A stretch of DNA of 64,000 nucleotides from an uncultured Flavobacteriales bacterium (GCA_903837495.1 CAILUT010000005.1:43782-107781); one strand, 5' to 3'. Positions 303 to 63,563 are shown, counted from the stretch's first letter. Translations and numbers: made by a program. Notes: a model not told the origin generated them from the sequence alone.

Positions 303-1805
303 TTGCAAAGTAACGCAGCGTTTTTCACTTTTGGCGGTCTTGCATTCGTGAAATCGTTACAACGGTATTTCTTTTTGCTGATTTCAGCATTGTTTATTCC
401 CCCGTTTGCTACGGTAGGCCGTGCGTTGGAAGGTCGCATGGTCTGCCAGAACGGGGGAGGACCTGAACAGGCCCCTGGCTTAAGCGTTTTTTATGGAGTT
501 ACCGGCGGGCCCAACGGTCCTGTGCGGGCAATGGAATTCGACAGTGCCTCAGGGATTATTTATGTAGGCGGATCCTTCACCTCGTTCTTAGCTGGAACAA
601 CCCAGGGCGATGGCCATGTTGCAGGATTCAATCCCATCACCAATCAATGGTTTGAAGTGGCGGGCGGATTGCCCGGAAAGGTAAACGATTTAATGTTCTG
701 GAATGGGATACTGTATGCCGGCGGATTATTCACGAACACCAACGGAGATGAATATGGGGTTGCTCGACTGGGCAACAGCGGCTGGGAAGAAGTAGGACTG
801 CTGAGCGGAGAAGTGCATTGCCTGCAGCTGTATCAAAATAAATTGCATGCGGGCGGGAACTTTGCCCTGAACGGGCAGGGCGGGACATCTACCTACATTG
901 CAAAATTCCTAAACGGCACTTGGAGCAGCCCCGGCTTTACCTTTAACGGAGTAGTAAAAACCATGTTGGAGTGGCAGGGGATGTTGGTCATGGGCGGAGA
1001 ATTCAACCACAGCGGACTCATGCCCAGCTTGCACGTGTTTGGCTGGAACGGAACTTCGGGCTGGGTCCCTGGCAGCCCCGGAGCCCCCGTTTATTCCCTA
1101 GAAATTTTTCAGGGGGAATTGTATGCCGGTGGCCCATTGCTTTCTGGATACGACACCTTTGGGTTGGCCAAATGGCAAAACAACCAATGGACAAACCTAA
1201 TTACGCTCGACTTCTTCAACAACACCTCGACCTTCTCGCCTACCCAGCTGGCCTCCATGGGATTTTGGAAAATAAAAAGCATCGAAAACCAGCATCCAGA
1301 TTATTTTTCGCCCCGGCAGCTGTACGCCATCGGCAATTTTTTGTTTCAACCCCAAAACTCCAATTCCCGTCCCGGGCAAAACATGCTAAGGCTCGATGCC
1401 GGCATAGGCCTTACCGGAGATAGCTTTGCCGACTCAACCGTTTACGATGTCATCGAAATCAACGGAACCCTATACGTCGCGGGGCTGTTTAGTACCATAA
1501 ATCAAATCCCGGCCTACTATTTTGGGTACAGCCGGCAAGAAGCCACCTCCATCGAAACCCACAATTCCGGCATTGGTCTTTTGAGTGCATTCCCAAATCC
1601 CAGTGCGGGCAGAATGGTTGAACTGCGTGGTTTGTCGGAATCCATGCTAGGTCAAAAAGGCAAACTGCTTAATGCCAGCGGGCAGGCGTTGGGGGAACTC
1701 ACGCTGCAATCGAACTACCAAGTAAATTTGGGCAATTTGCCCCCCGGAACCTACACCGCAAGCTGGCCCAACGGCCAATTTGTACGTTTTAGCCTTACAC
1801 CTTAA
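303..1805 (+). CDS. T9SS type-A C-terminal sorting domain protein with beta-propeller-like Gly-rich repeats
   Basis: ORF track. Repeated G-G/Y-A-GG units. C-terminus FPNPSAGRMVELRGL...GTYTASWPNGQFVRFSLTP is a typical Por secretion tail. Start is uncertain: TTG at 303 or GTG at 349 giving the signal peptide MKSLQRYFFLLISALF. Confidence 0.7.
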   Translation: MQSNAAFFTFGGLAFVKSLQRYFFLLISALFIPPFATVGRALEGRMVCQNGGGPEQAPGLSVFYGVTGGPNGPVRAMEFDSASGIIYVGGSFTSFLAGTTQGDGHVAGFNPITNQWFEVAGGLPGKVNDLMFWNGILYAGGLFTNTNGDEYGVARLGNSGWEEVGLLSGEVHCLQLYQNKLHAGGNFALNGQGGTSTYIAKFLNGTWSSPGFTFNGVVKTMLEWQGMLVMGGEFNHSGLMPSLHVFGWNGTSGWVPGSPGAPVYSLEIFQGELYAGGPLLSGYDTFGLAKWQNNQWTNLITLDFFNNTSTFSPTQLASMGFWKIKSIENQHPDYFSPRQLYAIGNFLFQPQNSNSRPGQNMLRLDAGIGLTGDSFADSTVYDVIEINGTLYVAGLFSTINQIPAYYFGYSRQEATSIETHNSGIGLLSAFPNPSAGRMVELRGLSESMLGQKGKLLNASGQALGELTLQSNYQVNLGNLPPGTYTASWPNGQFVRFSLTP

Positions 1806-1826
1806 TCCTGCTTCGCTTACCTTTGA

Positions 1827-2414
1827 ATGATGCGCCCGCTTGACCATATCGTTTCAGACTGCCTTAGGGGAAAACCCTCGGCGCAGCGGGAATTGTATGA
1901 CCGCTACGCGTCCCTGCTTCTGGGCATCTGCTTTCGCTATGCCAAAGGACGCGACGATGCCGAAGAAATCTTGCAACAATCCTTCATTAAGATTTTTACC
2001 CGCATGGAATCCTTCAACAATCAAGGCTCGTTCGAAGGCTGGATGAAGCGGGTAACCATCAATACGGCCCTGAACTTTTTAAGCAGCCAAAAACGCCTGG
2101 GATTCACCGAAGAGGTAACTCCGCAGACCGCCTTTCACAACGAAGACCCCGAGGCCGAAATGATCCGAAACATGGAACATGAAAAGCTGTTTGAATGCAT
2201 TGGTCGGCTGCCCGACGGCTACAGAGTGGTTCTTAACCTGTTTGCCATAGAAGGCCTAAGCCATAAAGAGATTGGCGAGCGCTTAGGCATTAATGAAAGC
2301 ACATCGCGTTCGCAATTCGTTCGGGCCAAATCGGCCCTGAAAAAAATATTGGAAGAGAGTTTTAACACAGATGCAATTCCCTATGTCGGTAAAGTGGTTC
2401 GAACTTCTGCGTAA
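1827..2414 (+). CDS. RNA polymerase sigma-70 factor, ECF subfamily
   Basis: Region 2 (LYDRYASLLLGICFRYAKGRDDAEEILQQSF) and region 4 (LPDGYRVVLNLFAIEGLSHKEIGERLGINESTSRSQFVRAKSAL) are conserved. Size is 195 aa. Confidence 0.85.
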   Translation: MMRPLDHIVSDCLRGKPSAQRELYDRYASLLLGICFRYAKGRDDAEEILQQSFIKIFTRMESFNNQGSFEGWMKRVTINTALNFLSSQKRLGFTEEVTPQTAFHNEDPEAEMIRNMEHEKLFECIGRLPDGYRVVLNLFAIEGLSHKEIGERLGINESTSRSQFVRAKSALKKILEESFNTDAIPYVGKVVRTSA

Positions 2415-4236
2415 GCGTGCCGGGGAGTTTCGTATGACTCCCCCGGATCGGATTTTCAGGCAGGTTCAAAATGAACTGCCCGGCCAAGCTATTCCCGGTT
2501 TGAAGGAGCAGGCCGAAGCATTTGTTGTGCAACCCTCTGCAGGCTTGTTTGACGGAATACAAGCAGGTTTGGCCAACCAAGTAGCTCCCGCATTGCAGGA
2601 ACAGGCCGACGCTTTTCGCCTAAATCCTTCCGAGCAGCTGTTTGAAAAAATTCAACAGCAACTTCCAGGGCAGGCCCTTCCCGCCTTGTCCGAAAAAGCG
2701 ACCGACTTCCGCCTACAGCCCTCGGCTAAGCTGTTTCAACACATTCAACGCCGCATGCAAGCACGCCGCCGCCGCCGTGCAGCGGCCCTCTTGCTCACAA
2801 TCCTCATCTTGGGCTCCGCTGCCTGGGTCTTGCCCACATTCTTTGGCGATTCAGGCCTGGGAACCGCCAACCAGAGCTCGGAAACGGCCCAAACTCCATT
2901 AAAAAATCAAAATCAAAACACCCCGGGTACAGAGAACCCAGAACAGCCCGAAGCAGAACCGGCAACTGCCACCGAAACAGCCTTTTCAGCCACCGGAGCA
3001 GAAAGCCTAGAGCCTTCAAACAGCAGCAATACCGGTACCGGCAGACCGAAGCAAAGCAGTTCGAAAAACAGAAATACGAGCGGGCAGGAAGAAGCCGAAA
3101 CAGGCAAAACCAAGGCCTCGGCAGCCTCCGAAAAAGAACAAGCAAGCGGCTTGGCTGCCAAAAACTCGGCTGGGCTACATTCCAACCGATCTGAGAAAAA
3201 ATCAACCCAACCCAACGGGGCTCGGCGTTCGGGAAGAGGGAATAGAAACGGGCAGGCGGAATCTGCCTCAGGCTTAGCCGGCGACCAAAAAGGAAAAGCC
3301 GAACTAGGTTTAAGCAAGCGTGAAAGCTGGGAGCCGCTGGAGTTGAAATGGGAAAAATACCAGGCACAGCGCATCGAACCCGTGTTTAGCTGGAGTTCCT
3401 TCAACAACCGCTGGAAGCGCCCACACATAGAAAAAGTATTTCTGCGTACTCCCCAGCGCCGCCCAGCCCGATTCTCGCTGCGCGGACAATTCGAAGCCAC
3501 GGCCTTAGCTACACAAATGGACTTTAGCGAAAACCCAGATTACCAAGGCAAAAAAAGCAGTTTGTTGAATCCCGCTTCTTATCAGGACTTAGAGTCAAGG
3601 CTTCAAACTCCCGACTTTTCATACCAGGTTCAAGCCGGGTTGGAGTTCGGGTTCCGATCGGTTTACCTGCGCACGGGGCTAAGTTTGCTGCGCTTGACCT
3701 ACCAGCAAAACGAGCTGCAATTTGAGCACAAATCATTGATTGTAAACGTACCCGTTACCGACACCCTGACCTTTACCAACAGTGCGGGAGTTGATACCAC
3801 GGTGGTGTACAGCTACATCAAGCCCGAGCTAAAAGACGTGCTAGACACCACGCGCATCACCTACTCGGCGCGGGCCACCTATGCGAGTATTCCCTTGGCT
3901 TTTGGCTACCGACACGAGCGGGGCCGATGGTTTGCCCAGGCCGACGTAGGCGTGGCTCTGAATCTTTTTATTGAGGGCCGCGGATTGGCCTACATGGCTG
4001 CCGGGGCCACAGTATTGGCTCCCACGGGTCAGGCCGATCAGGCATTGTGGAACAGCTTGGGCTTAGACGCCACAGCCCGACTCAAAGCAGGCTTAAAACT
4101 ATCGCGACGCTGGTCAGCCGCCCTGCACCTCGACTTGCGCATGGGCTTACGCCCAGTGTATTCGAGCGATCACGCCCTGCACCAAACCTATTCCGGCATG
4201 GGCCTAGGCTTCTCGCTAAACCACAGGATTTACTAG
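2371..4236 (+). CDS. anti-sigma-factor-like membrane protein with C-terminal outer-membrane beta-barrel (PorT/OMP_b-brl-like) domain
   Basis: Overlaps the 3' end of the ECF sigma gene. It has three tandem repeats of about 31 aa at the N-terminus, an R-rich stretch followed by one TM helix (AAALLLTILILGSAAWVLP), a long S/N/Q/E-rich low-complexity linker, and a C-terminal roughly 250 aa with alternating hydrophobic beta-strand pattern ending in an aromatic residue. Confidence 0.55.
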   Translation: MQFPMSVKWFELLRKRAGEFRMTPPDRIFRQVQNELPGQAIPGLKEQAEAFVVQPSAGLFDGIQAGLANQVAPALQEQADAFRLNPSEQLFEKIQQQLPGQALPALSEKATDFRLQPSAKLFQHIQRRMQARRRRRAAALLLTILILGSAAWVLPTFFGDSGLGTANQSSETAQTPLKNQNQNTPGTENPEQPEAEPATATETAFSATGAESLEPSNSSNTGTGRPKQSSSKNRNTSGQEEAETGKTKASAASEKEQASGLAAKNSAGLHSNRSEKKSTQPNGARRSGRGNRNGQAESASGLAGDQKGKAELGLSKRESWEPLELKWEKYQAQRIEPVFSWSSFNNRWKRPHIEKVFLRTPQRRPARFSLRGQFEATALATQMDFSENPDYQGKKSSLLNPASYQDLESRLQTPDFSYQVQAGLEFGFRSVYLRTGLSLLRLTYQQNELQFEHKSLIVNVPVTDTLTFTNSAGVDTTVVYSYIKPELKDVLDTTRITYSARATYASIPLAFGYRHERGRWFAQADVGVALNLFIEGRGLAYMAAGATVLAPTGQADQALWNSLGLDATARLKAGLKLSRRWSAALHLDLRMGLRPVYSSDHALHQTYSGMGLGFSLNHRIY

Positions 4237-4300
4237 TAGAGACGCAATATTTTGCGTCTCCGCAATATTTTGCGTCTGCGCAATATATCGCGTCTCCGCC
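4236..4300. repeat. REP hairpin cluster 1 (1 full + 2 degenerate copies of GAGACGCAATATTTTGCGTCTC)
   Basis: Palindromic stem GTAGAGACGC/GCGTCTCTAC seen directly. Overlaps the stop codon of the upstream gene. Confidence 0.7.
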
Positions 4301-4329
4301 GGTCGCATTCCCATACATCGGTTTTTGTT

Positions 4330-4473
4330 GGGGCGGCAGCCGGGCTTTCCGGGCTACTCCGCGGTCCAAAGCGGGCCGGTGCAAGCCCGGCAGTAGCTCC
4401 TCGCGTCGCTCTGCCGTGCCAACACCGGCAGCCGCTTTGGCCCTTGCGGGGTAGCCGCGTCAATCCCTGCCGC
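4330..4473 (-). repeat. GC-rich nested-hairpin intergenic element, copy A (inverted orientation)
   Basis: Ends GGGGCGGCAG...TCAATCCCTGCCGC. Internal reverse complement of the conserved core. About 70% GC against roughly 50% background. Confidence 0.65.
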
Positions 4474-4682
4474 GGGCGGCCTGGGTGAAAAACCAACAAT
4501 ATAGAATAGAGCCGCATGGGAACATCAAACACAATGTGTTGATTGCCAATTAATTAGACCTGCCAGCCTTGACAAAACAGGGAGATTGGCTTATTTTTGT
4601 TGGTTCAAAGAATCTAGGGAATACCGCAGCGCAATTGGGAGTTCCGCATCTCTGGATATTTTTCAAAATTAAAACGTCAAGA

Positions 4683-5402
4683 ATGGAAAAATTCAAGAAC
4701 AAATACCGCATTGCCTCGACCCGCGCCACATACTGGGATTATGGCTGGAATGCCGCCTATTTTATTACCATCATTACCCAAAATTGGTCTTGCTGGTTTG
4801 GCAAGGTGAAAAACAAAAAGATGGAATTATCAGACCTAGGCGCGTATGCAAATTCGTGCTGGTTGGAAATACCGAACCACTTCCCCTTTGTAGAATTGGG
4901 TGCTCATGTAATTATGCCAAACCACGTTCACGGCATTTTGATTATTAACAAACCGGTCGTAGAGACGCAATATTTTGCGTCTCCCGCCGGTAAATCAAAC
5001 CATAGCGACAACGTCGTAGAGACGCAAAATATTGCGTCTCCCGACGACAAATCAGATCGTAGCGACAACGTCGTAGAGACGCAATATTTTGCGTCTCCCA
5101 ACGGGAAATCAGACCGTAGCGACAACGTCGTAGAGACGCAAAATATTGCGTCTCTACAAACGCCACAAAACAAATTCGGGCCACAATCCCAAAATTTGGC
5201 GGCCATCGTTCGTGGATATAAAATAGGCGTAACAAAAAACGCCCGGTTGATTCACCCGAAATTCAAATGGCAACCCCGGTTCCATGACCACATTATACGT
5301 GATGAAAGGGCATTTAATGCCATTTCAAATTACATTTTAAAAACCCCGCCAAATGGAATTCCAATCGGTAGAGACGCACTATTTTGCGTCTCCCGCCGGT
5401 AA
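4683..5402 (+). CDS. REP-associated tyrosine transposase (RAYT; IS200/IS605-like HuH Y1 transposase) carrying an in-frame 68-aa REP-array insertion
   Basis: N-terminal YRIASTRATYWDYGWNAAYFITIIT, HuH motif VIMPNHVHGIL, then C-terminal WQPRFHDHIIRDERAFNAISNYILKTP (catalytic Tyr motif). Between the HuH and Tyr motifs sit four REP units translated as VVETQYFASP.../VVETQNIASP... Confidence 0.7.
   Translation: MEKFKNKYRIASTRATYWDYGWNAAYFITIITQNWSCWFGKVKNKKMELSDLGAYANSCWLEIPNHFPFVELGAHVIMPNHVHGILIINKPVVETQYFASPAGKSNHSDNVVETQNIASPDDKSDRSDNVVETQYFASPNGKSDRSDNVVETQNIASLQTPQNKFGPQSQNLAAIVRGYKIGVTKNARLIHPKFKWQPRFHDHIIRDERAFNAISNYILKTPPNGIPIGRDALFCVSRR
4956..5157. repeat. REP array (4 hairpins, alternating loop orientation, 53-60 bp period) inside the RAYT ORF
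   Basis: GTCGTAGAGACGCAATATTTTGCGTCTCC and GTAGAGACGCAAAATATTGCGTCTCTAC alternate. Inter-hairpin segments are near-identical (..AAATCAGACCGTAGCGACAACGTC). Confidence 0.8.
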
Positions 5403-5614
5403 TTCAAACCGCAGCGACAACGTCGTAGAGACGCACTATTTTGCGTCTCCCAACGAGAATTCAAACCGTAGCGACACCGTAGGGACGCACTATTTTGCGT
5501 CTCCCGCCGGGAATTAAAACCGTAGCGACACCGTAGAGACGCACTATTTTGCGTCTCCCAACGAGAATTCAAACCGTAGCGACACCATAGAGACGCAAAA
5601 TATTGCGTCTCTAC
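5368..5614. repeat. REP array (5 hairpins, period about 54 bp) at the 3' end of and downstream of RAYT
   Basis: GTAGAGACGCACTATTTTGCGTCTCC repeated four times, then GTAGAGACGCAAAATATTGCGTCTCTAC. Spacers are all about AATTCAAACCGTAGCGACACCGTA. Confidence 0.8.
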
Positions 5615-5661
5615 GGCGTAAAATCCCGCGAAATTGAATAAATTTGACCAAAATTATTGAC

Positions 5662-6541: not shown

Positions 6542-7258
6542 ATGAAAGACAGGAAAAAACCCGAAGTGGATCTCCGTAAATATGGGACTCTCATGTTTGC
6601 TCTAGCCCTTACCCTATCGGTTTCGGCGGTATTGATGGCCACCGAATTTCGGTACTTTGAAGAGCGGCTTTTGGAAATTTTTATTGCAGAAGAAGAGTTT
6701 TTGGTGCAGGAACAGGTAATCAATTACATACCACCACCGCCCTCGGCCGCTCCTAAGCCTCCCCCTCCCTCGGTTGTAGAACAGATTCGAATTGTTGAAA
6801 ACGAGGTTGAACTAGAGCAAGAAGTTGAAATCGACGTTGAAATTGACCTAGAAACTGAAGTGTCGGATCAGCAGGGAGAATTTGGTCAGCAAGAAGAAGC
6901 GGTTCAAGACGATCAGATATTTCAGATTGTGGAAGACATGCCCCGCTTTGCCGGTTGCGAAAAGGCCAAAGACATAGATGCCTGCTTTCAAGAGAAATTG
7001 TATGCGTTTTTGGGTAAAAACCTAAAGTATCCGCCCACAGCAAAAGACATGGGAATTACCGGAAAGGTGTATGTTGGTTTTGTGGTTGAAAAAGACGGCA
7101 GCGTTGGCCAGGTTACTGTGTTGCGCGACATTGGTGGTGGTTGCGGGAATGAAGCCAAGCGGGTAATTTCAAATTTACCAAATTTTACCCCCGGGAAGCA
7201 ACGTGGACGGCCTGTGCGGGTGCAGTACCAACTGCCCATTAATTTCCAACTTCGCTAA
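6542..7258 (+). CDS. tonB: energy transducer TonB
   Basis: N-terminal TM, Pro-rich PPPPSAAPKPPPPS spacer, and C-terminal TonB_C domain (MPRFAGCE...GKVYVGFVVEKDGSV...VQYQLPINFQL). Confidence 0.8.
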   Translation: MKDRKKPEVDLRKYGTLMFALALTLSVSAVLMATEFRYFEERLLEIFIAEEEFLVQEQVINYIPPPPSAAPKPPPPSVVEQIRIVENEVELEQEVEIDVEIDLETEVSDQQGEFGQQEEAVQDDQIFQIVEDMPRFAGCEKAKDIDACFQEKLYAFLGKNLKYPPTAKDMGITGKVYVGFVVEKDGSVGQVTVLRDIGGGCGNEAKRVISNLPNFTPGKQRGRPVRVQYQLPINFQLR

Positions 7259-7385
7259 AACGAGGGGTTGCGGAAATGGGGCCAAGCGCGTAATTTCAAA
7301 TATACCAAATTTTACCCCCGGGAAGCAACGTGGACGGCCTGTGCGGGTGCAGTACCAACTGCCCATTGACTTCCAACTTTGCTAA
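7138..7385 (+). repeat. tandem direct duplication (2 x about 120 bp, about 93% identity, 8-bp spacer) of the tonB 3' end
   Basis: 7138-7257 and 7266-7385 align base-for-base (GGTTGCGG[G/A]AATG...CCAACTT[C/T]GCTAA). The second copy encodes the orphan GCGNGAKRVISNIPNFTPGKQRGRPVRVQYQLPIDFQLC. Confidence 0.75.
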
Positions 7386-7659
7386 TACCAATTGCGCTTG
7401 CTTAAACCGAGAGGGCGGTGCACGGGGAACATAAAACCTGGTTGGATTTCGCCCTGAGCTTATTTTGGGCTATTGCTTGCTTTGCCTGGAAGCAGTAGCA
7501 TGAACGCTTGGGGACAGAATGTGCAAGAAACCAAATTAAAACAACAGCGTGGTCTAAAGTGAATATGCCGGTTTATTCTGGCCGTAAAAATCACAGGATA
7601 AGAATGCGTTTTTTTTAGAAAAATTCAGTGCTTTTTGGGACGCCAACTTAAGGTATCTG

Positions 7660-7887: not shown

Positions 7888-7960
7888 TTTTACTTTAAGG
7901 TGTAGGAGTGGGATTGCTAGGGCTTTAGTGAAATGAGGGCGCAGAACGATTGAGTGGCCT

Positions 7961-8103
7961 GCGGCAGGGATTGAAGAGGGTTGCCCGCAAGGTTGGCAGG
8001 GCCTGGCCCGCGTGGCGCGGAGGCGACTTTAGGAGCCCCCGCAAGCCCGCTGGGACAGCCCCTGGCAACCGCGGACTACCCCTGAAAGCCCAGCTGCCGC
8101 CCT
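7961..8103 (+). repeat. GC-rich nested-hairpin intergenic element, copy B
   Basis: GCGGCAGGGATTGAAGAGGGTTGCCCGCAAGG...GCGCGGAGGCGACTTTAGGAGCCCCCGCAAGCCCGCTGGG...GAAAGCCCAGCTGCCGCCC. Internal stem GGTTGGCAGGG/CCCTGGCAACC. Confidence 0.7.
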
Positions 8104-50492: not shown

Positions 50493-50634
50493 GGGCGGCT
50501 GCGGGCTTTCACCGGTAGTCCTCGGTTGCCGGTGGCTGGCCCAGCGGGTTTGCGGGGGCTCCTAACGTCGCCTCCGCACCACGCGGGCCAGGCACCGCCA
50601 CCCTGTGGGCTACCTGGTTCAATCCCTGCCGCAG
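50493..50634 (-). repeat. GC-rich nested-hairpin intergenic element, copy D (inverted orientation)
   Basis: GGGCGGCTGCGGGCTTTC...GGCTCCTAACGTCGCCTCCGC...GGTTCAATCCCTGCCGC. Confidence 0.7.
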
Positions 50635-50863
50635 CGGCCTCCATTGAAACGTGTTTTCTGTTCCATTGTTTGCCTCAAACCGCAGCAGCTCGACGGCCTA
50701 CATTTTAGGCCTTTCACCCACTTTGGGCCGCTGGACATACCTGGGGGGCCTTTTGCCCATCGGCTTTTCTTGTGCATGCCATCCGATTGAACAAAAAAAC
50801 ACGCATTCCACTTTGGGAATCAAATAAATTACAATAATTTAACACTCGGTTTTCAATCCCAAT

Positions 50864-51745: not shown

Positions 51746-52621
51746 ATGAAAGCTGCGGTTTGGGCTCTGCTCGTGGTTAATTTATTGTACGGCATCAACT
51801 ATGGAGTGGCCAAGTCGATCATGCCCGAACCCCTGCATCCTACCGGAATCATTTTTATGCGCTCGGCCGGAGCCCTTCTCCTATTTTGGATTGTTGCCCT
51901 AAGCCGCCCCATGGAACGCATTCAAAAAGGCGATTGGCTCCGGCTGCTTCTATGTGCTCTGTTTGGTGTTATGCTGAACCAAACCTTGTTTTTTGAAGGG
52001 CTTAACCGAAGCAATCCCATTGAATCTGCCTTGGTAATGACCGTCAGCCCTGTGTTGGTGTTTTTGTTTTCAGCGCATGCCGGATTGGAGAAGATGCAAA
52101 AAACAACTTGGGCAGGAATTCTGCTGAGCGGTGGCGGGGCTGCGGCCCTAATCCTTCATCGGCAAGAAGGCCTGGTATTTTCGCAAAGCAGTGGATTTGG
52201 GAATTTATTGATTTTCATCAACGCCGCCTCATTCGCCCTTTTTTTGGTTTTAGTTAAACCCTTAATGCAAAAATACAGTCCCATAACGGTTATGGCTTGG
52301 GTATTCACCTTTGGCATGCCCATGACAGCGGTGTTGGGCATTCCCGATTTGGCGGCAACCCCGTTGTTGGAACTTCCTGCAGGGGTTTGGTGGGCCGTTG
52401 CCTATGTGGTTATAGGCGTTACTTTTATAGCCTACCTACTGAATGTTTTTGCATTAAAACGGGTAAATGCAAGTTTGGTAAGCGCATTTATTTATTTGCA
52501 GCCGGTTGTGGCGGGCATGTTGCAAGCGTTTGGCGGGAAACTTGACTTTTCTTGGACCTTGGCTTGGTCCTGCGCAGCGGTATGTATAGGCCTATTTTTG
52601 GTAGGTAGAGCATCCAAATAA
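51746..52621 (+). CDS. DMT superfamily (EamA-like) transporter
   Basis: 10 TM helices, two EamA half-domains. 291 aa. Confidence 0.8.
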   Translation: MKAAVWALLVVNLLYGINYGVAKSIMPEPLHPTGIIFMRSAGALLLFWIVALSRPMERIQKGDWLRLLLCALFGVMLNQTLFFEGLNRSNPIESALVMTVSPVLVFLFSAHAGLEKMQKTTWAGILLSGGGAAALILHRQEGLVFSQSSGFGNLLIFINAASFALFLVLVKPLMQKYSPITVMAWVFTFGMPMTAVLGIPDLAATPLLELPAGVWWAVAYVVIGVTFIAYLLNVFALKRVNASLVSAFIYLQPVVAGMLQAFGGKLDFSWTLAWSCAAVCIGLFLVGRASK

Positions 52622-52698
52622 CCGCAGCAGCACTTCCGTTTTAAATAGGCCTATTTTTGGTAGGTAGAGCATCCAAATAACCGCAGCAGCACTTCCTT
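52594..52698 (+). repeat. tandem direct duplication (2 x about 52 bp) of the EamA gene 3' end including its stop codon
   Basis: AGGCCTATTTTTGGTAGGTAGAGCATCCAAATAACCGCAGCAGCACTTCC appears twice in tandem. Confidence 0.75.
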
Positions 52699-52736
52699 TT
52701 TAAAATGGGACTGCATCAAAACAACGGTGCGGTGAG

Positions 52737-52879
52737 CGGCAGGGATTGAGCAGGGTTGCCCGCAAGGGTGCTGACAGGGGGCCCGCGCGGCGCGGAGGCG
52801 ACAGCAGGAGCCCCCGCAAGCCCGCTGGGCCCGCTGTCAGCAACCGCGGACTACCAGCGAAAGCCCGCCTGCCGCCCCC
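52737..52879 (+). repeat. GC-rich nested-hairpin intergenic element, copy E
   Basis: GCGGCAGGGATTGAGCAGGGTTGCCCGCAAGG...GCGCGGAGGCGACAGCAGGAGCCCCCGCAAGCCCGCTGGG...GAAAGCCCGCCTGCCGCCCCC. Stem CTGACAG/CTGTCAG. Confidence 0.7.
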
Positions 52880-57005: not shown

Positions 57006-57134
57006 GTTGCGGGCTTTCACAGGTTGTCCGCGGTTGCCGGGCATTGCCCCAGCGGGCTTGCGGGGGCTCCTAAAGTCGCCTCCGCGCCACGCGGGGCAAG
57101 CCCCGCCACCCTTGCGGGCAACCCGGTTCAATCC
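57006..57134 (-). repeat. GC-rich nested-hairpin intergenic element, copy F (inverted orientation)
   Basis: GGGGGGCGGTTGCGGGCTTTC...GGCTCCTAAAGTCGCCTCCGC...GGTTCAATCCCTACCGC. Confidence 0.7.
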
Positions 57135-57189
57135 CTACCGCAGGCCACCCAACCCCTTTCTACTCAAAATTTAAAAAATAGGCCTTTTG

Positions 57190-58051: not shown

Positions 58052-60333
58052 GGTATTTCCTGCCAATGGTTGTTCCACATGCGGTACGCTCCAAATACAC
58101 CCCCCACATCTATATCCAAGGGCCTTAACATAAACCGATTCACTCCAAATGCCTTGGATTGAAAGTCGTAGGCGGTTAATGCGATTCGGTACCGCATGTT
58201 TGGCCGGGCAACAAAGGTAAGCGAGCAACGTGCCCAGCCTCCATCCAAACATCGGCTTCGAGCAGGATTTGCCTGGGCTATCCATTGTCCTTGGCCCTGC
58301 TCATTCACTTCCTCAACAAACAAAACCCCATTCACTGAATTGCTTTGGCGGGCATCTACCCACAGGCTTGCTTCGTAGGCCTCTGGATTCAAACCAAGGC
58401 TGTCCAGCAAAACATGGTATTCACTTCTAGGAATCTGTTTTGCTTTATTTCCGTACGGCGGAGCCTCCCCGTAGCTTTGGTCGGCAAGCCGATTAAAATG
58501 CTTCGCTTTATTTCCGTACGGTGCCGCCCCCGGGTAGCTTTGGTCGGCAAGCAGGTTGAAATGCACGGAATCGCGCTCCGCCGCCTCTGCCAAAGGAAGA
58601 ACCCGCATCCAATCTTCAGCTCGAATAAGCCCTAAACGGTAGGTGGAATCTACCGCCAAGACCTTAAACGGCTTTCGATGCGACCACCGGGCTTGGTTCC
58701 AATCCAAATCCTTTGGATAAAGCAGAGCCAAGATCTTGCCCTTCAATGCCCGCTGAAAATGGGGGCTCGGGGTGTACCAAGGCTCGCTCGAAAAGCCACC
58801 AGTAGCTAAGGCCTGTTCTTCGTTTGGTCGAATTAATATCCCGCCTACGGTTGGCACATTCCCAAGTACACTTAGAACATAGGCCAAGCGCCGCAGCTCA
58901 ACCGGGTTTTCGCCGGCGGTCATCAAACTCCCTTCAAACAAAAAGGGTTCGGTCAGCAAGGCCGCCGGTTTTTCGGACCTCAAAAGCGCCAAACCGGCTT
59001 TAAATTCTTCCGATTGATGGGATTCGGAATACAGGTTGGGGGTTTTTAGGTGGATGTCGGTTAAAAACCGAATGTGGCCATGGGCTTCGATCCCTGCCGG
59101 CATCAAGACCAATGCCAACAAAAAACTGCGCCGAAGGGGGGCGGTGTTTTTAAGGGCAGAGTAGAAAGCCAGCCCAACCGAAAATCCAAGGACTCCGTAC
59201 ATAGGCCAAGCAAAACGCATCACAAACCGAAACTGCTTTAAGTAGGGCACCACTTCAAACAACCACGAAAACCGACTCAAACCAAACAAACCACTTGCAA
59301 AAAGCAACAAACCCAATCCCGCAAAAACAGCCGACCTTGGAAGGGCCTTAAACAGGGATTTACCATAGCCCAAAACGAAAACCCAGAGCAGGGTCCACCA
59401 TACCGACCAAGGAATAAAAGCAAACTCCCAAGCCTGGGAACTGCCTGCATCGCCAATCCACACGTTCAGCCATTCATTTACATGGCCTACCCCCGGCAGC
59501 AACCACTGGGCCAAGCTCATTTGATTGTCGGTAGCGCCCCAAGGCTCTTGGGTTCGGAAATTAGAGGCCAAATCGCTCCATTTTAAAAACACCACAAAAA
59601 GCAACAAGGGCAAGGCCAGCAGAAAGGCCCGAAACCAGGTTTGAAATTTAAAGGGCTTGGCCAACAAAACCCACAACAGAGCAAAGGAACCGTTTACTAA
59701 TCCTAAATACGGATGAATTAACACCGATAAAGCGACCCAAAAAGAGGCACTAAAAATAGGTCGAAGCGTATTGGATTGCTCGGTCGATTTTAGCAATGCC
59801 AAACATAAATACGGAAAAAGAGCGGTGTAGGCCAGTGAAAAGTTGCCGTTGTTTTTTAGCCACTGGGGGGCCAACAACGAAAGAGCTAAGGCCAAAATGC
59901 CGGCAGCCATTGCAGGCATGCCTTTGTAGCGGCCCAACCGATACCAACCCAAATGGGTAAACAGCAACTGAGCCAAAACAAGGCCATTAAACACCCCCAC
60001 CATGTAGGGCCGAAGGCTGGGAAAAAGAGAAAAGAACCCCGCAGAAAACCAACACAACAACGGATTGGCATCTAAGTAAAACAAATGCTCAGCAAAGGGG
60101 AAAAACCAAGAATCCAACCAACATCCTGAGGCATGCCCCAAAGCAAACTCGGCATACACCCGATACGCCCGATCCGCATCGCTCCAATACGAAAAAAGGA
60201 CCTGATTTAGGTGAATGGGCAGGGGCCAGTACAGCAGCAGCACCGCCACAATGGGCAAGACCCAAGCCCAAAAAAGGGTTTTTGAAGCCTCAAGCCTCAA
60301 TACAACAGGTGTTTTTTGGAGCTGTTCTTCCAC
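58048..60333 (-). CDS. YfhO-like large polytopic membrane protein (putative glycosyl/lipid transferase) with C-terminal extracytoplasmic domain
   Basis: More than 12 TM helices in the N-terminal about 450 aa, soluble C-terminal about 300 aa. Contains an internal about 60-bp tandem repeat (58430-58555) encoding (A)PYGNKAK. Confidence 0.5.
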   Translation of the reverse strand: MEEQLQKTPVVLRLEASKTLFWAWVLPIVAVLLLYWPLPIHLNQVLFSYWSDADRAYRVYAEFALGHASGCWLDSWFFPFAEHLFYLDANPLLCWFSAGFFSLFPSLRPYMVGVFNGLVLAQLLFTHLGWYRLGRYKGMPAMAAGILALALSLLAPQWLKNNGNFSLAYTALFPYLCLALLKSTEQSNTLRPIFSASFWVALSVLIHPYLGLVNGSFALLWVLLAKPFKFQTWFRAFLLALPLLLFVVFLKWSDLASNFRTQEPWGATDNQMSLAQWLLPGVGHVNEWLNVWIGDAGSSQAWEFAFIPWSVWWTLLWVFVLGYGKSLFKALPRSAVFAGLGLLLFASGLFGLSRFSWLFEVVPYLKQFRFVMRFAWPMYGVLGFSVGLAFYSALKNTAPLRRSFLLALVLMPAGIEAHGHIRFLTDIHLKTPNLYSESHQSEEFKAGLALLRSEKPAALLTEPFLFEGSLMTAGENPVELRRLAYVLSVLGNVPTVGGILIRPNEEQALATGGFSSEPWYTPSPHFQRALKGKILALLYPKDLDWNQARWSHRKPFKVLAVDSTYRLGLIRAEDWMRVLPLAEAAERDSVHFNLLADQSYPGAAPYGNKAKHFNRLADQSYGEAPPYGNKAKQIPRSEYHVLLDSLGLNPEAYEASLWVDARQSNSVNGVLFVEEVNEQGQGQWIAQANPARSRCLDGGWARCSLTFVARPNMRYRIALTAYDFQSKAFGVNRFMLRPLDIDVGGVFGAYRMWNNHWQEIP

Positions 60334-63249: not shown

Positions 63250-63388
63250 GTAGAGCCGCAAAATGTTGCGGCTGATTTGCGGTGGAGACGGAAAATGTTG
63301 CGTCTGATTTGCGGTGGAGACGCAAAATATTGCGTCTCTACTGTTCCTTGATCATCAAAGGTGGAGACGCAAAATATTGCGTCTCTAC
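63250..63388. repeat. REP hairpin cluster 3 (4 copies, 31-47 bp period; first copy carries a compensated stem variant GAGCCGC/GCGGCTC)
   Basis: GTAGAGCCGCAAAATGTTGCGGCTG; GGTGGAGACGGAAAATGTTGCGTCTG; GGTGGAGACGCAAAATATTGCGTCTCTAC twice. Confidence 0.75.
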
Positions 63389-63420
63389 AGGCGATAAACG
63401 GCCACGATGCGCGGCAGGGA

Positions 63421-63544
63421 TTGACGCAACTACCCCGCAAAGGTGCCGACGGCTGGCCCGCTAGGTGCGGAGGCGACGTGAGGAGCCCCCGCAAACCAGC
63501 TGGGCCAGCCTTTCGGCACCTGCGGAGTAGTGCGGAAAGCCCGG
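63421..63544 (+). repeat. GC-rich nested-hairpin intergenic element, copy G
   Basis: GCGGCAGGGATTGACGCAACTACCCCGCAAAGG...GTGCGGAGGCGACGTGAGGAGCCCCCGCAAACCAGCTGGG...GAAAGCCCGGCTGCCGCCCCCC. Stem GGTGCCGACGGCTGGCCC/GGGCCAGCCTTTCGGCACC. Confidence 0.7.
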
Positions 63545-63563
63545 CTGCCGCCCCCCAAAAAAA

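Follow-up and report, generated by a model that had tools for sequence, protein, structure and literature searches.

A 64,000-nucleotide (nt) stretch of DNA from an uncultured Flavobacteriales bacterium (GCA_903837495.1, CAILUT010000005.1:43782-107781; the whole stretch is referred to as the window) very probably carries a REPtron of TnpA_REP subclass 2.4, that is, a single-copy gene for a Y1 HuH enzyme accompanied by cognate repetitive extragenic palindromes (REPs) upstream, downstream, and in frame inside the gene itself. The gene, of the REP-associated tyrosine transposase (RAYT) type, is an open reading frame (ORF) of 239 codons at 4683..5402 on the plus strand, and it stays open through four hairpins located between the HuH motif and the catalytic tyrosine. 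A preceding sequence-only reading had described the locus as a RAYT gene invaded by its own hairpins, regarded this as unusual for Bacteroidota, and raised the question of whether the gene is a fresh pseudogene. The comparative analyses described below indicate that the hairpin inside the gene is the rule in this family and that the number of its copies is what distinguishes the window locus.

The RAYT gene and its REP hairpins

The ORF encodes HVHGIL and WQPRFHDHIIRDERAFNAISNYILKTP. Within PNHVHGIL and KWQPRFHDHIIRDERAFNAISNYILK lie the HuH motif (HVH, 4923-4931), the WQ motif (5268-5273), and the candidate catalytic tyrosine (Tyr217, codon TAC at 5331-5333), all on the plus strand. The segments PNHVHG, KWQPRF, and NYILK(N)P match the subclass 2.4 signature NH[IFV]H, WQ, and YIxNNP, and an alignment of 64 sequences yields the family consensus MPNHVHG...WQxRYHDHIIR...YIINNPxxW, with H81-V-H83 and Y217 invariant. 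An AlphaFold2 model built from the same alignment has a core (residues 21-90 and 171-220) with a predicted local distance difference test score (pLDDT) above 90, and places the HuH motif on strand E81-88 and Y217 on the last helix, H208-224. The best Foldseek match of the model is Escherichia coli TnpA_REP (4ER8_A; E = 2.8e-5), followed by the TnpA structures of ISDra2, IS200, and IS608, and all of the top 30 Foldseek matches in the PDB are TnpA_REP or IS200/IS605 transposases. Sequence searches of the PDB returned 4ER8 as the sole match, at E = 0.006 with phmmer for the protein and at E = 3.2e-6 for the 64-sequence family profile. More than 7000 homologues were detected at E <= 0.001, most of them in Bacteroidota, and several carry the JGI name 'REP element-mobilizing transposase RayT'; the 64-kb window contains a single copy of the gene. 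Judged from sequence and modelled fold, the protein is a Y1 HuH enzyme of the RAYT branch, nearer to TnpA_REP than to IS200-type TnpA.

In the window there are 12 occurrences of the hairpin core GAGACGC-N8-GCGTCTC, compared to 0.01 expected from dinucleotide-preserving shuffles. The cores start at 4239 upstream of the gene; at 4962, 5019, 5076, and 5133 within it; at 5371, 5428, 5482, 5536, and 5590 downstream; and at 63317 and 63364, about 58 kb from the RAYT locus. When folded as single-stranded DNA (ssDNA), 11 of the 12 hairpins have energies of -8.1 to -12.8 kcal/mol (z = -6.4 to -11), and the degenerate hairpin at 5479 is weaker (-6.2 kcal/mol, z = -3.5). The palindrome had first been described as a 28-bp hairpin with a 10-bp stem around N8. 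Its complete form has a 12-bp stem and a 4-nt loop (GTAGAGACGCAA-AATA-TTGCGTCTCTAC), and the full 'double foot' version, GTAG...CTAC, is found only in the last unit of each array, with 12 bp at 5130-5157 (GTAGAGACGCAAAATATTGCGTCTCTAC) and 11 bp at 5587-5616. Stems are 9 bp long in the other in-gene units and 8 bp long in the downstream units with a ACTATTTT centre; in inner units the 5' GTA is unpaired and the 3' end reads ...GCGTCTCCC (...CCC), not ...CTAC.

The array inside the gene (4956..5157, plus strand) comprises 3.5 units of 57 bp, or 19 codons each, with hairpins at 4959-4986, 5016-5043, 5073-5100, and 5130-5157. Tandem Repeats Finder delimits this block as 4956-5154 (period 57, 3.5 copies); the array measures 202 nt rather than the 204 bp, or 68 codons, originally given. 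Downstream of the gene, five hairpins occupy 5368..5616 on the plus strand in units of 57/54/54/54 bp, the last being double-footed (Tandem Repeats Finder: 5368-5611, period 54, 4.5 copies). The periods of this array are likewise multiples of three, and positions 5368-5480 are 88% identical to in-gene positions 4959-5071, including the spacers. The upstream 'array' at 4236-4300 of the sequence-only reading resolves into one plus-strand hairpin (4236..4262; GTAG foot, 9-bp stem, -10 kcal/mol, z = -6.4) and 3.2 degenerate 18-nt partial repeats of the hairpin loop and 3' arm (4243..4299, plus strand; repeat analysis). Finally, four hairpins belonging to this family form an extragenic cluster on the plus strand at 63250..63390, between two minus-strand genes. 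It consists of two exact GTGG...CTAC double-foot copies (63314 and 63361) and two degenerate copies, one of which shows a compensated stem change, GAGCCGC...GCGGCT.

All units are arranged as direct repeats and have the GTAG foot on the plus strand, and the REPs flanking the gene (4236-4262 and 5368-5616) begin with GTAG, in one case with ATAG. An alternation of loop orientation between neighbours had been taken as a sign of doublets like those in bacterial interspersed mosaic elements (BIMEs). The alternation (TATT/AATA) is present in the four in-gene units but not in the downstream array, where four of the five units carry ACTATTTT. BIME-like doublets of REP and inverse REP (iREP) were rejected, because the units share one orientation and differ only in the 4-nt loop. 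Intrinsic terminators were likewise rejected, as no T-run follows the hairpins. An Rfam gathering scan of the whole window returned one tRNA and nothing else, and a permissive Rfam scan of 4200-4700 gave chance-level miRNA and ribozyme matches far under threshold.

Much of the initial description is therefore borne out. Motifs, profile, fold, and 4ER8 matches agree on a RAYT-type Y1 HuH gene; GTAG-footed cognate hairpins flank it on both sides; four copies lie in frame between HuH and the catalytic tyrosine with the ORF remaining open; and further copies of the hairpin exist elsewhere, around 63.3 kb of the window and, in other genomes, at over 100 sites.

A separate observation concerns gene ends, since both genes that precede a REP array terminate at a REP foot. 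The TAG stop (4234-4236) of a 621-residue ORF shares its final base with the first G of the GTAG of the upstream hairpin (4234-4239), and close relatives terminate the RAYT gene with the TAG that forms part of the first downstream hairpin's GTAG (window positions 5366-5371).

The in-gene hairpin across the family

The in-gene array encodes repeats of the form VVETQ[YN][FI]ASPxxKSxxSDN and exceeds the equivalent segment of single-hairpin homologues by 3 x 57 nt, or 57 codons. In the model it sits between strand E81-88 (beta3) and helix H167-190 (alphaC), and AlphaFold2 assigns the array-encoded residues 92-161 a pLDDT of ~40-50 and no secondary structure. The insert of ~70 residues is predicted to form a disordered surface loop outside the fold, which should tolerate it.

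Two samples of homologues were used to place this arrangement in context, the 120 best of the more than 7000 homologous proteins and 80 unselected homologous loci from metagenomes with 32-62% identity; in the latter, an in-gene hairpin was defined as a perfect hairpin with a stem of at least 8 bp. The peptide ETQxxA, a translation of the hairpin, occurs at least once in 97 of the 120 best homologues and at least twice in 25, and is lacking in ~7. Wherever the linker could be delimited, the peptide is located in it, and its last copy typically reads VETQN[IF]ASL. At the DNA level, 68 of the 80 unselected loci contain an in-gene hairpin, at a median distance of 298 nt from the gene start, and hairpin density is 1.96/kb in the gene and its 300-bp flanks versus 0.39/kb farther out. 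One hairpin at the linker position is thus the family norm. The in-gene array is a tolerated, family-typical feature that does not disrupt the gene; only the amplification of the 57-bp unit to four copies is particular to the window locus. The description of the gene as 'invaded' does not hold against this background, given that most of the 120 best homologues contain VETQN[IF]ASL, nor does the expectation that the arrangement is unusual for Bacteroidota, as it is a published hallmark of subclass 2.4 (PMC6006769).

The in-gene hairpin varies together with the hairpins around the gene. Among the unselected loci 38 distinct inner stems were found, and the encoded peptide changes with the stem (VETQNFASL, VETRLIASL, VETRHALSL, VETLHATSL, and VGAKNFSPL). 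The inner stem is common to in-gene and flanking hairpins in 29 of 45 loci, whereas 1000 permutations averaged 8.4 such loci and never exceeded 16. Among 47 double-foot in-gene hairpins, the VET frame is used by 40 and the RD..VST frame by seven, whereas the frame in which GTAG specifies a stop is not used by any. A homologue from Thermophagus has a quite different in-gene hairpin of 16 bp, close variants of which lie just upstream and downstream of its gene, one with a compensated stem change. The hairpin-encoded amino acids, VETQNIASL in the window locus, follow the palindrome and are not selected as a peptide. As far as these sequence comparisons indicate, the in-gene element is the lineage's own REP, and it is at the level of DNA that it is constrained or renewed.

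A further, tentative suggestion is that the in-gene hairpin might be a selected cis-element of subclass 2.4 REPtrons and not a tolerated insertion, although on balance this is doubtful. It may serve as a protected master copy, with REP and enzyme co-inherited and homogenised, as a self-target by which the enzyme senses or restrains its own gene, or as an engineered fragile site where recombination with the flanking arrays can trim or remove the gene. The prevalence of ~85% at one position among homologues of 32-62% identity would fit such a role, as would the covariation with flanking REPs, the palindrome-following peptide, the use of both stop-free frames, and the unit shared by in-gene and extragenic arrays. 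Gene conversion acting together with a preferred insertion site would produce the same pattern, and selection is not proven by it.

The hairpin also occurs widely without the gene. The exact 22-mer GAGACGCAAAATATTGCGTCTC is present in at least 119 stretches of other genomes. Among the matches listed, to which the following figures refer, most are from Hymenobacter, Mucilaginibacter, and other Bacteroidota; Arsenicibacter, Chitinophagaceae, Saprospiraceae, and Prevotellaceae are also represented, as are a few metagenome-assembled genomes (MAGs) from outside Bacteroidota, and several genomes have multiple 22-mer loci. About 143 copies were counted, 129 of which are more than 400 bp from any RAYT homologue; many of the dispersed copies form doublets 55-90 bp apart with loops in opposite orientation; and 32% of the copies fall in stop-free stretches of at least 150 codons, compared to 86% of random positions.

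With regard to hosts outside Bacteroidota, the identical 22-nt hairpin was observed in a Methylomonas MAG (L012, L035, and L071) and in MAGs assigned to Sumerlaeota, Geobacteraceae, Aminicenantes, Brocadiaceae, and Acidobacteriota (L014, L026, L054, L062, and L069). The Methylomonas MAG contains a RAYT gene with the hairpin inside and on both sides. These occurrences could reflect horizontal transfer of REPtrons or binning contamination.

For SecDF of the source genome, relatives with 98% identity were found in metagenomes only, and named Bacteroidota MAGs reach ~55%, which resolves the taxonomy to the phylum. Comparison of close relatives provides a view of the arrays over short evolutionary distances. 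Two syntenic contigs (L120 and L121) share the neighbours of the window locus, namely an ECF sigma factor, the 621-residue ORF, gcvH, VanZ, and TonB_C, and are almost identical to it in unique sequence. They differ from the window in how the loops of individual units are oriented, in the number and content of the upstream partial repeats, and in the downstream array. The number of units is two, three, four, or five in proteins 87-96% identical to the ORF, as counted in short-read metagenome assemblies, which are able to collapse tandem repeats. Two further contigs (L126 and L127) jump from the in-gene to the downstream array, such that the catalytic half of the gene is gone; such contigs may reflect genuine deletion by recombination or short-read or unitig assemblies misjoined at the repeats. 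The arrays thus appear unstable between near-identical strains. In addition, positions 1690-4766 of another metagenome contig (L129; Ga0209487_1003750) show RAYT-homologous matches over ~3 kb together with eight hairpins of two types, with loop regions AAAATCTT and AATGCATT, which points to a locus with several RAYT genes or gene fragments in tandem.

Relation to known systems, allele integrity, and alternative explanations

Subclass 2.4, as defined by Quentin et al. 2018 (BMC Genomics 19:475, PMC6006769), corresponds to RAYT group 4 of Bertels et al. 2017 and occurs abundantly among Cyanobacteria and Bacteroidetes. According to that study, its members have the motifs NH[IFV]H, WQ, and YIxNNP, and its REPs are of the 'double foot' type (5' GT[AG]G ... 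C[TC]AC 3'). The beta3-alphaC insertion varies greatly in both length and sequence, is built of short DNA repeats, and was modelled as a peripheral extension; REPs in frame between the HuH and Tyr motifs are a defining trait of the subclass (PMC6006769). The window locus resembles these systems in its NHVH, WQ, and YIxNNP motifs (YILKNP in its close relatives), in its REP-bearing variable beta3-alphaC insertion, in its double-foot REPs and Bacteroidetes host, and in the absence of a conserved C-terminal extension after the core. The assignment rests on these diagnostic features, every one of which, where compared in sequence or model, is present, and the locus differs in nothing essential. Its particulars are the four tandem 57-bp units in place of the usual single hairpin, the unit shared by the in-gene and downstream arrays, the frameshift near the 3' end of this allele, and the stop codon that its relatives derive from the GTAG foot of the first downstream REP.

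More distant systems provide instructive contrasts. E. coli TnpA_REP (RAYT group 2; 4ER8) has the same fold and is likewise encoded by a single-copy gene associated with GTAG-footed hairpins that are also dispersed outside genes. The two proteins, however, are only ~15% identical, and the E. coli gene has no internal REP. The REPs of E. coli, whose stem contains a bulge, number in the hundreds and are arranged as BIMEs in which REP and iREP alternate, whereas the window arrays are direct repeats; and the E. coli protein contacts GTAG through a C-terminal tail, whereas the window protein ends ~12 residues past the catalytic tyrosine. Rickettsia palindromic elements (RPEs) and intragenic GTAG/CGTC REPs (Di Nocera et al. 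2013, PMC3733652) show that in-frame palindromes are likewise tolerated within coding sequence, where dimers or clusters of them often add 20 to 80 residues, presumably as loops. Those elements are sporadic hits in unrelated housekeeping genes, in contrast to the present family, in which the hairpin occupies a fixed position in the cognate transposase gene of most members.

The phenomenon is therefore not new, having been published in 2018 for the subclass and the phylum. The window locus is a good but ordinary example, and as an isolated finding it carries little weight for that reason. It does provide a clean example of a mobile-element enzyme whose coding sequence holds its own DNA substrate. 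The present comparison adds the fixed position of the hairpin, its covariation with flanking REPs, the restriction to stop-free frames, and the apparent changes in unit number together with possible deletions. The question of whether an in-gene REP is a passenger or takes part in the maintenance or regulation of the REP/RAYT system is sharpened by these data, and the four-hairpin linker offers a natural test of a disordered insert tolerated by the Y1 fold.

By analogy with the enzymes of E. coli, Stenotrophomonas, and Marinomonas, a simple model would suggest that the RAYT protein binds the REP hairpin when it forms on ssDNA. The 5' GT[AG]G foot would serve as a guide, and cutting and rejoining at an adjacent CT or CA would proceed through a Tyr217 phosphotyrosine, as in group 2 and group 3 enzymes (4ER8, PMC8266576). 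Cleavage and rejoining could in turn lead to the spread or rearrangement of REPs. The in-gene hairpin fills the variable linker between beta3, which carries the HuH motif, and alphaC, and co-evolves with the flanking REPs. In the window locus the 57-bp unit, composed of hairpin and spacer, was most likely amplified to four copies via slippage or unequal recombination, and in-gene and flanking copies may exchange while the arrays expand and contract.

It is important to note that several results weigh against the assignment of the locus to a subclass 2.4 REPtron. The ORF gave no match to Pfam PF01797 (Y1_Tnp) at E <= 1, with or without the insert; among the 120 best homologues a precomputed PF01797 match exists for one, and the subfamily appears too divergent for this model. 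The NCBIfam profile REP_Tyr_transpos (NF047646) matched at 44.2 bits (E = 1.7e-11) with the insert kept and at 48 bits (E = 1.1e-12) in one continuous match over residues 23-155 with the insert removed, scores that are significant yet below the curated equivalog cut-off of 80 bits in both forms. The profile comparison with and without the insert that the sequence-only reading had put forward as decisive thus came out in favour of a RAYT with NCBIfam but fell short of its cut-off and failed with Pfam. Because curated cut-offs of these hidden Markov models were not reached, membership in the Y1/RAYT family rests on motifs, fold, and family context. Published biochemistry was found for RAYT groups 2 and 3 only (PMC8266576) and none for subclass 2.4, and REP binding and cleavage by the window protein are for this reason inferred. 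For the source organism only two hairpin loci are documented, both within the 64-kb window, with the second (63250-63390) intergenic, and three other homologous loci have no copy outside the REPtron within +/-10 kb. REP numbers in subclass 2.4 may be low, and Bertels et al. 2017 reported low numbers for group 4. The possible collapse of tandem repeats in the assemblies used for unit counts belongs here as well, as do the loss of N221 and W225 from the YIxNNPxxW tail of the window allele, both of which are at least 90% conserved in the family, and a possible relaxation of selection in this lineage.

One alternative is that the gene is a recently inactivated pseudogene, killed by the array, by a frameshift near its 3' end, or by both. 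In comparison to both syntenic alleles, 1 nt is deleted in a run of five A at 5339..5343 on the plus strand, as seen by alignment and tblastn. The frameshift replaces the conserved C-terminus NPAKWNSNR* with TPPNGIPIGRDALFCVSRR*; relatives end in ...YILKNPAKWNSNR* and the window allele in ...YILKTPPNGIPIGRDALFCVSRR*. The NP of the YILKNP motif becomes TP, and N221, W225, and the normal stop are removed; tblastn recovers the conserved tail in another frame as a second high-scoring segment pair at 5336-5368, with 91% identity to residues 152-162. Inactivation would also be consistent with the two related contigs that are without the whole catalytic half, and with five non-synonymous versus three synonymous differences from L120, which are too few substitutions for an interpretation of their ratio (dN/dS). 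The array, however, is in frame with its 19-codon units, as it is in relatives with complete proteins and two to five units, and in-gene hairpins are normal in a family of more than 7000 intact proteins. The frameshift follows the catalytic tyrosine and lies in a homopolymer run, the typical place for a sequencing error, and the deletion contigs stem from short-read or unitig assemblies prone to mis-joining repeats. Inactivation is accordingly considered unlikely. The earlier concern about a pseudogene was directed at the array, which is in frame, encodes a predicted disordered loop, and is itself harmless to the gene; the only lesion is the 1-nt deletion, for which either a sequencing error in the homopolymer or a genuine and possibly harmful mutation could account. 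The activity of this allele hinges on that deletion and is an issue separate from the array.

Two other explanations concern the nature of the repeats. The gene could be part of an autonomous insertion sequence (IS) of the IS200/IS605 type, mobile as a unit, with the flanking hairpins as left and right ends. Such an element would share the Y1 fold, common to the IS200, IS608, and ISDra2 transposases, and would have hairpins on both sides of the gene; more distant homologues do lie in unrelated neighbourhoods, and an average of 1.5 copies per genome with suggested horizontal transfer has been reported for subclass 2.4 (PMC6006769). Yet the best structural match, and the only PDB match by sequence, is TnpA_REP, and both 'ends' consist of one hairpin in tandem arrays, distinct left and right ends being absent. 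Motifs of the form NHVH / WQ / YIxxNP belong to class 2, as opposed to DH[VI]H and YxENQ (Y[IV]ENQ) of class 1. Together with the single gene copy in 64 kb and the occurrence of the hairpin without the gene, in the window and at 129 sites elsewhere among the matches listed, this makes an autonomous IS highly improbable. Alternatively, the units might be ordinary tandem repeats unrelated to the enzyme, either a variable-number tandem repeat (VNTR) in a low-complexity linker or a series of 28-nt palindromes with ~29-nt spacers resembling clustered regularly interspaced short palindromic repeats (CRISPR). The regular periodicity of 57/54 bp, the CRISPR-like repeat and spacer sizes, and the abundance of low-complexity repeats such as DDGRNDGRN and PPPS in family linkers would be compatible with this. 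A CRISPR-like array was rejected because the 'spacers' are mutually homologous; whole units are 88% alike, spacer diversity is nil, and no Rfam or CRISPR-type match was found. The GT[AG]G foot typical of REPs is present, and the hairpin occurs singly or as doublets far from arrays in many genera among the matches listed. This dispersal and the covariation with flanking hairpins across 45 loci contradict an origin as unrelated repeats, which is hardly tenable. A REPtron of subclass 2.4 with in-frame REPs accordingly remains the preferred description of the locus.

Other repeats in the window

A second repeat family, unrelated to the REPs, is GC-rich, ~150 nt long, and forms one long imperfect hairpin. 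Its six copies lie at 4322-4476, 7955-8095, 50503-50637, 52733-52872, 57012-57146, and 63407-63560. RNAalifold applied to the six copies yields 47 pairs, 21 of which show compensatory changes, and the conserved ends (GGGCTTTC... and ...TCAATCCCTGCCGC) give six matches in the window versus 0.08 expected. The element had no Rfam match, and among more than 200 fetched loci it was found only in contigs of the same lineage. Two copies adjoin clusters of REP hairpins, and one of these two separates the upstream REP from the RAYT gene. The element could be similar to REP doublets (REPINs), similar to a miniature inverted-repeat transposable element (MITE), or a structured RNA.

Three shorter duplications were also noted. 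A direct duplication of 123 nt with 93% identity (7139-7388) covers the TonB_C-domain gene (6542-7258) at its 3' end along with the sequence that follows immediately, and provides a second copy of the coding segment for the C-terminus of that gene. Two-copy tandem repeats occur at 52586-52703 (59 nt, 98% identity), adjoining one copy of the GC-rich element, and at 58436-58561 (63 nt, 83% identity).

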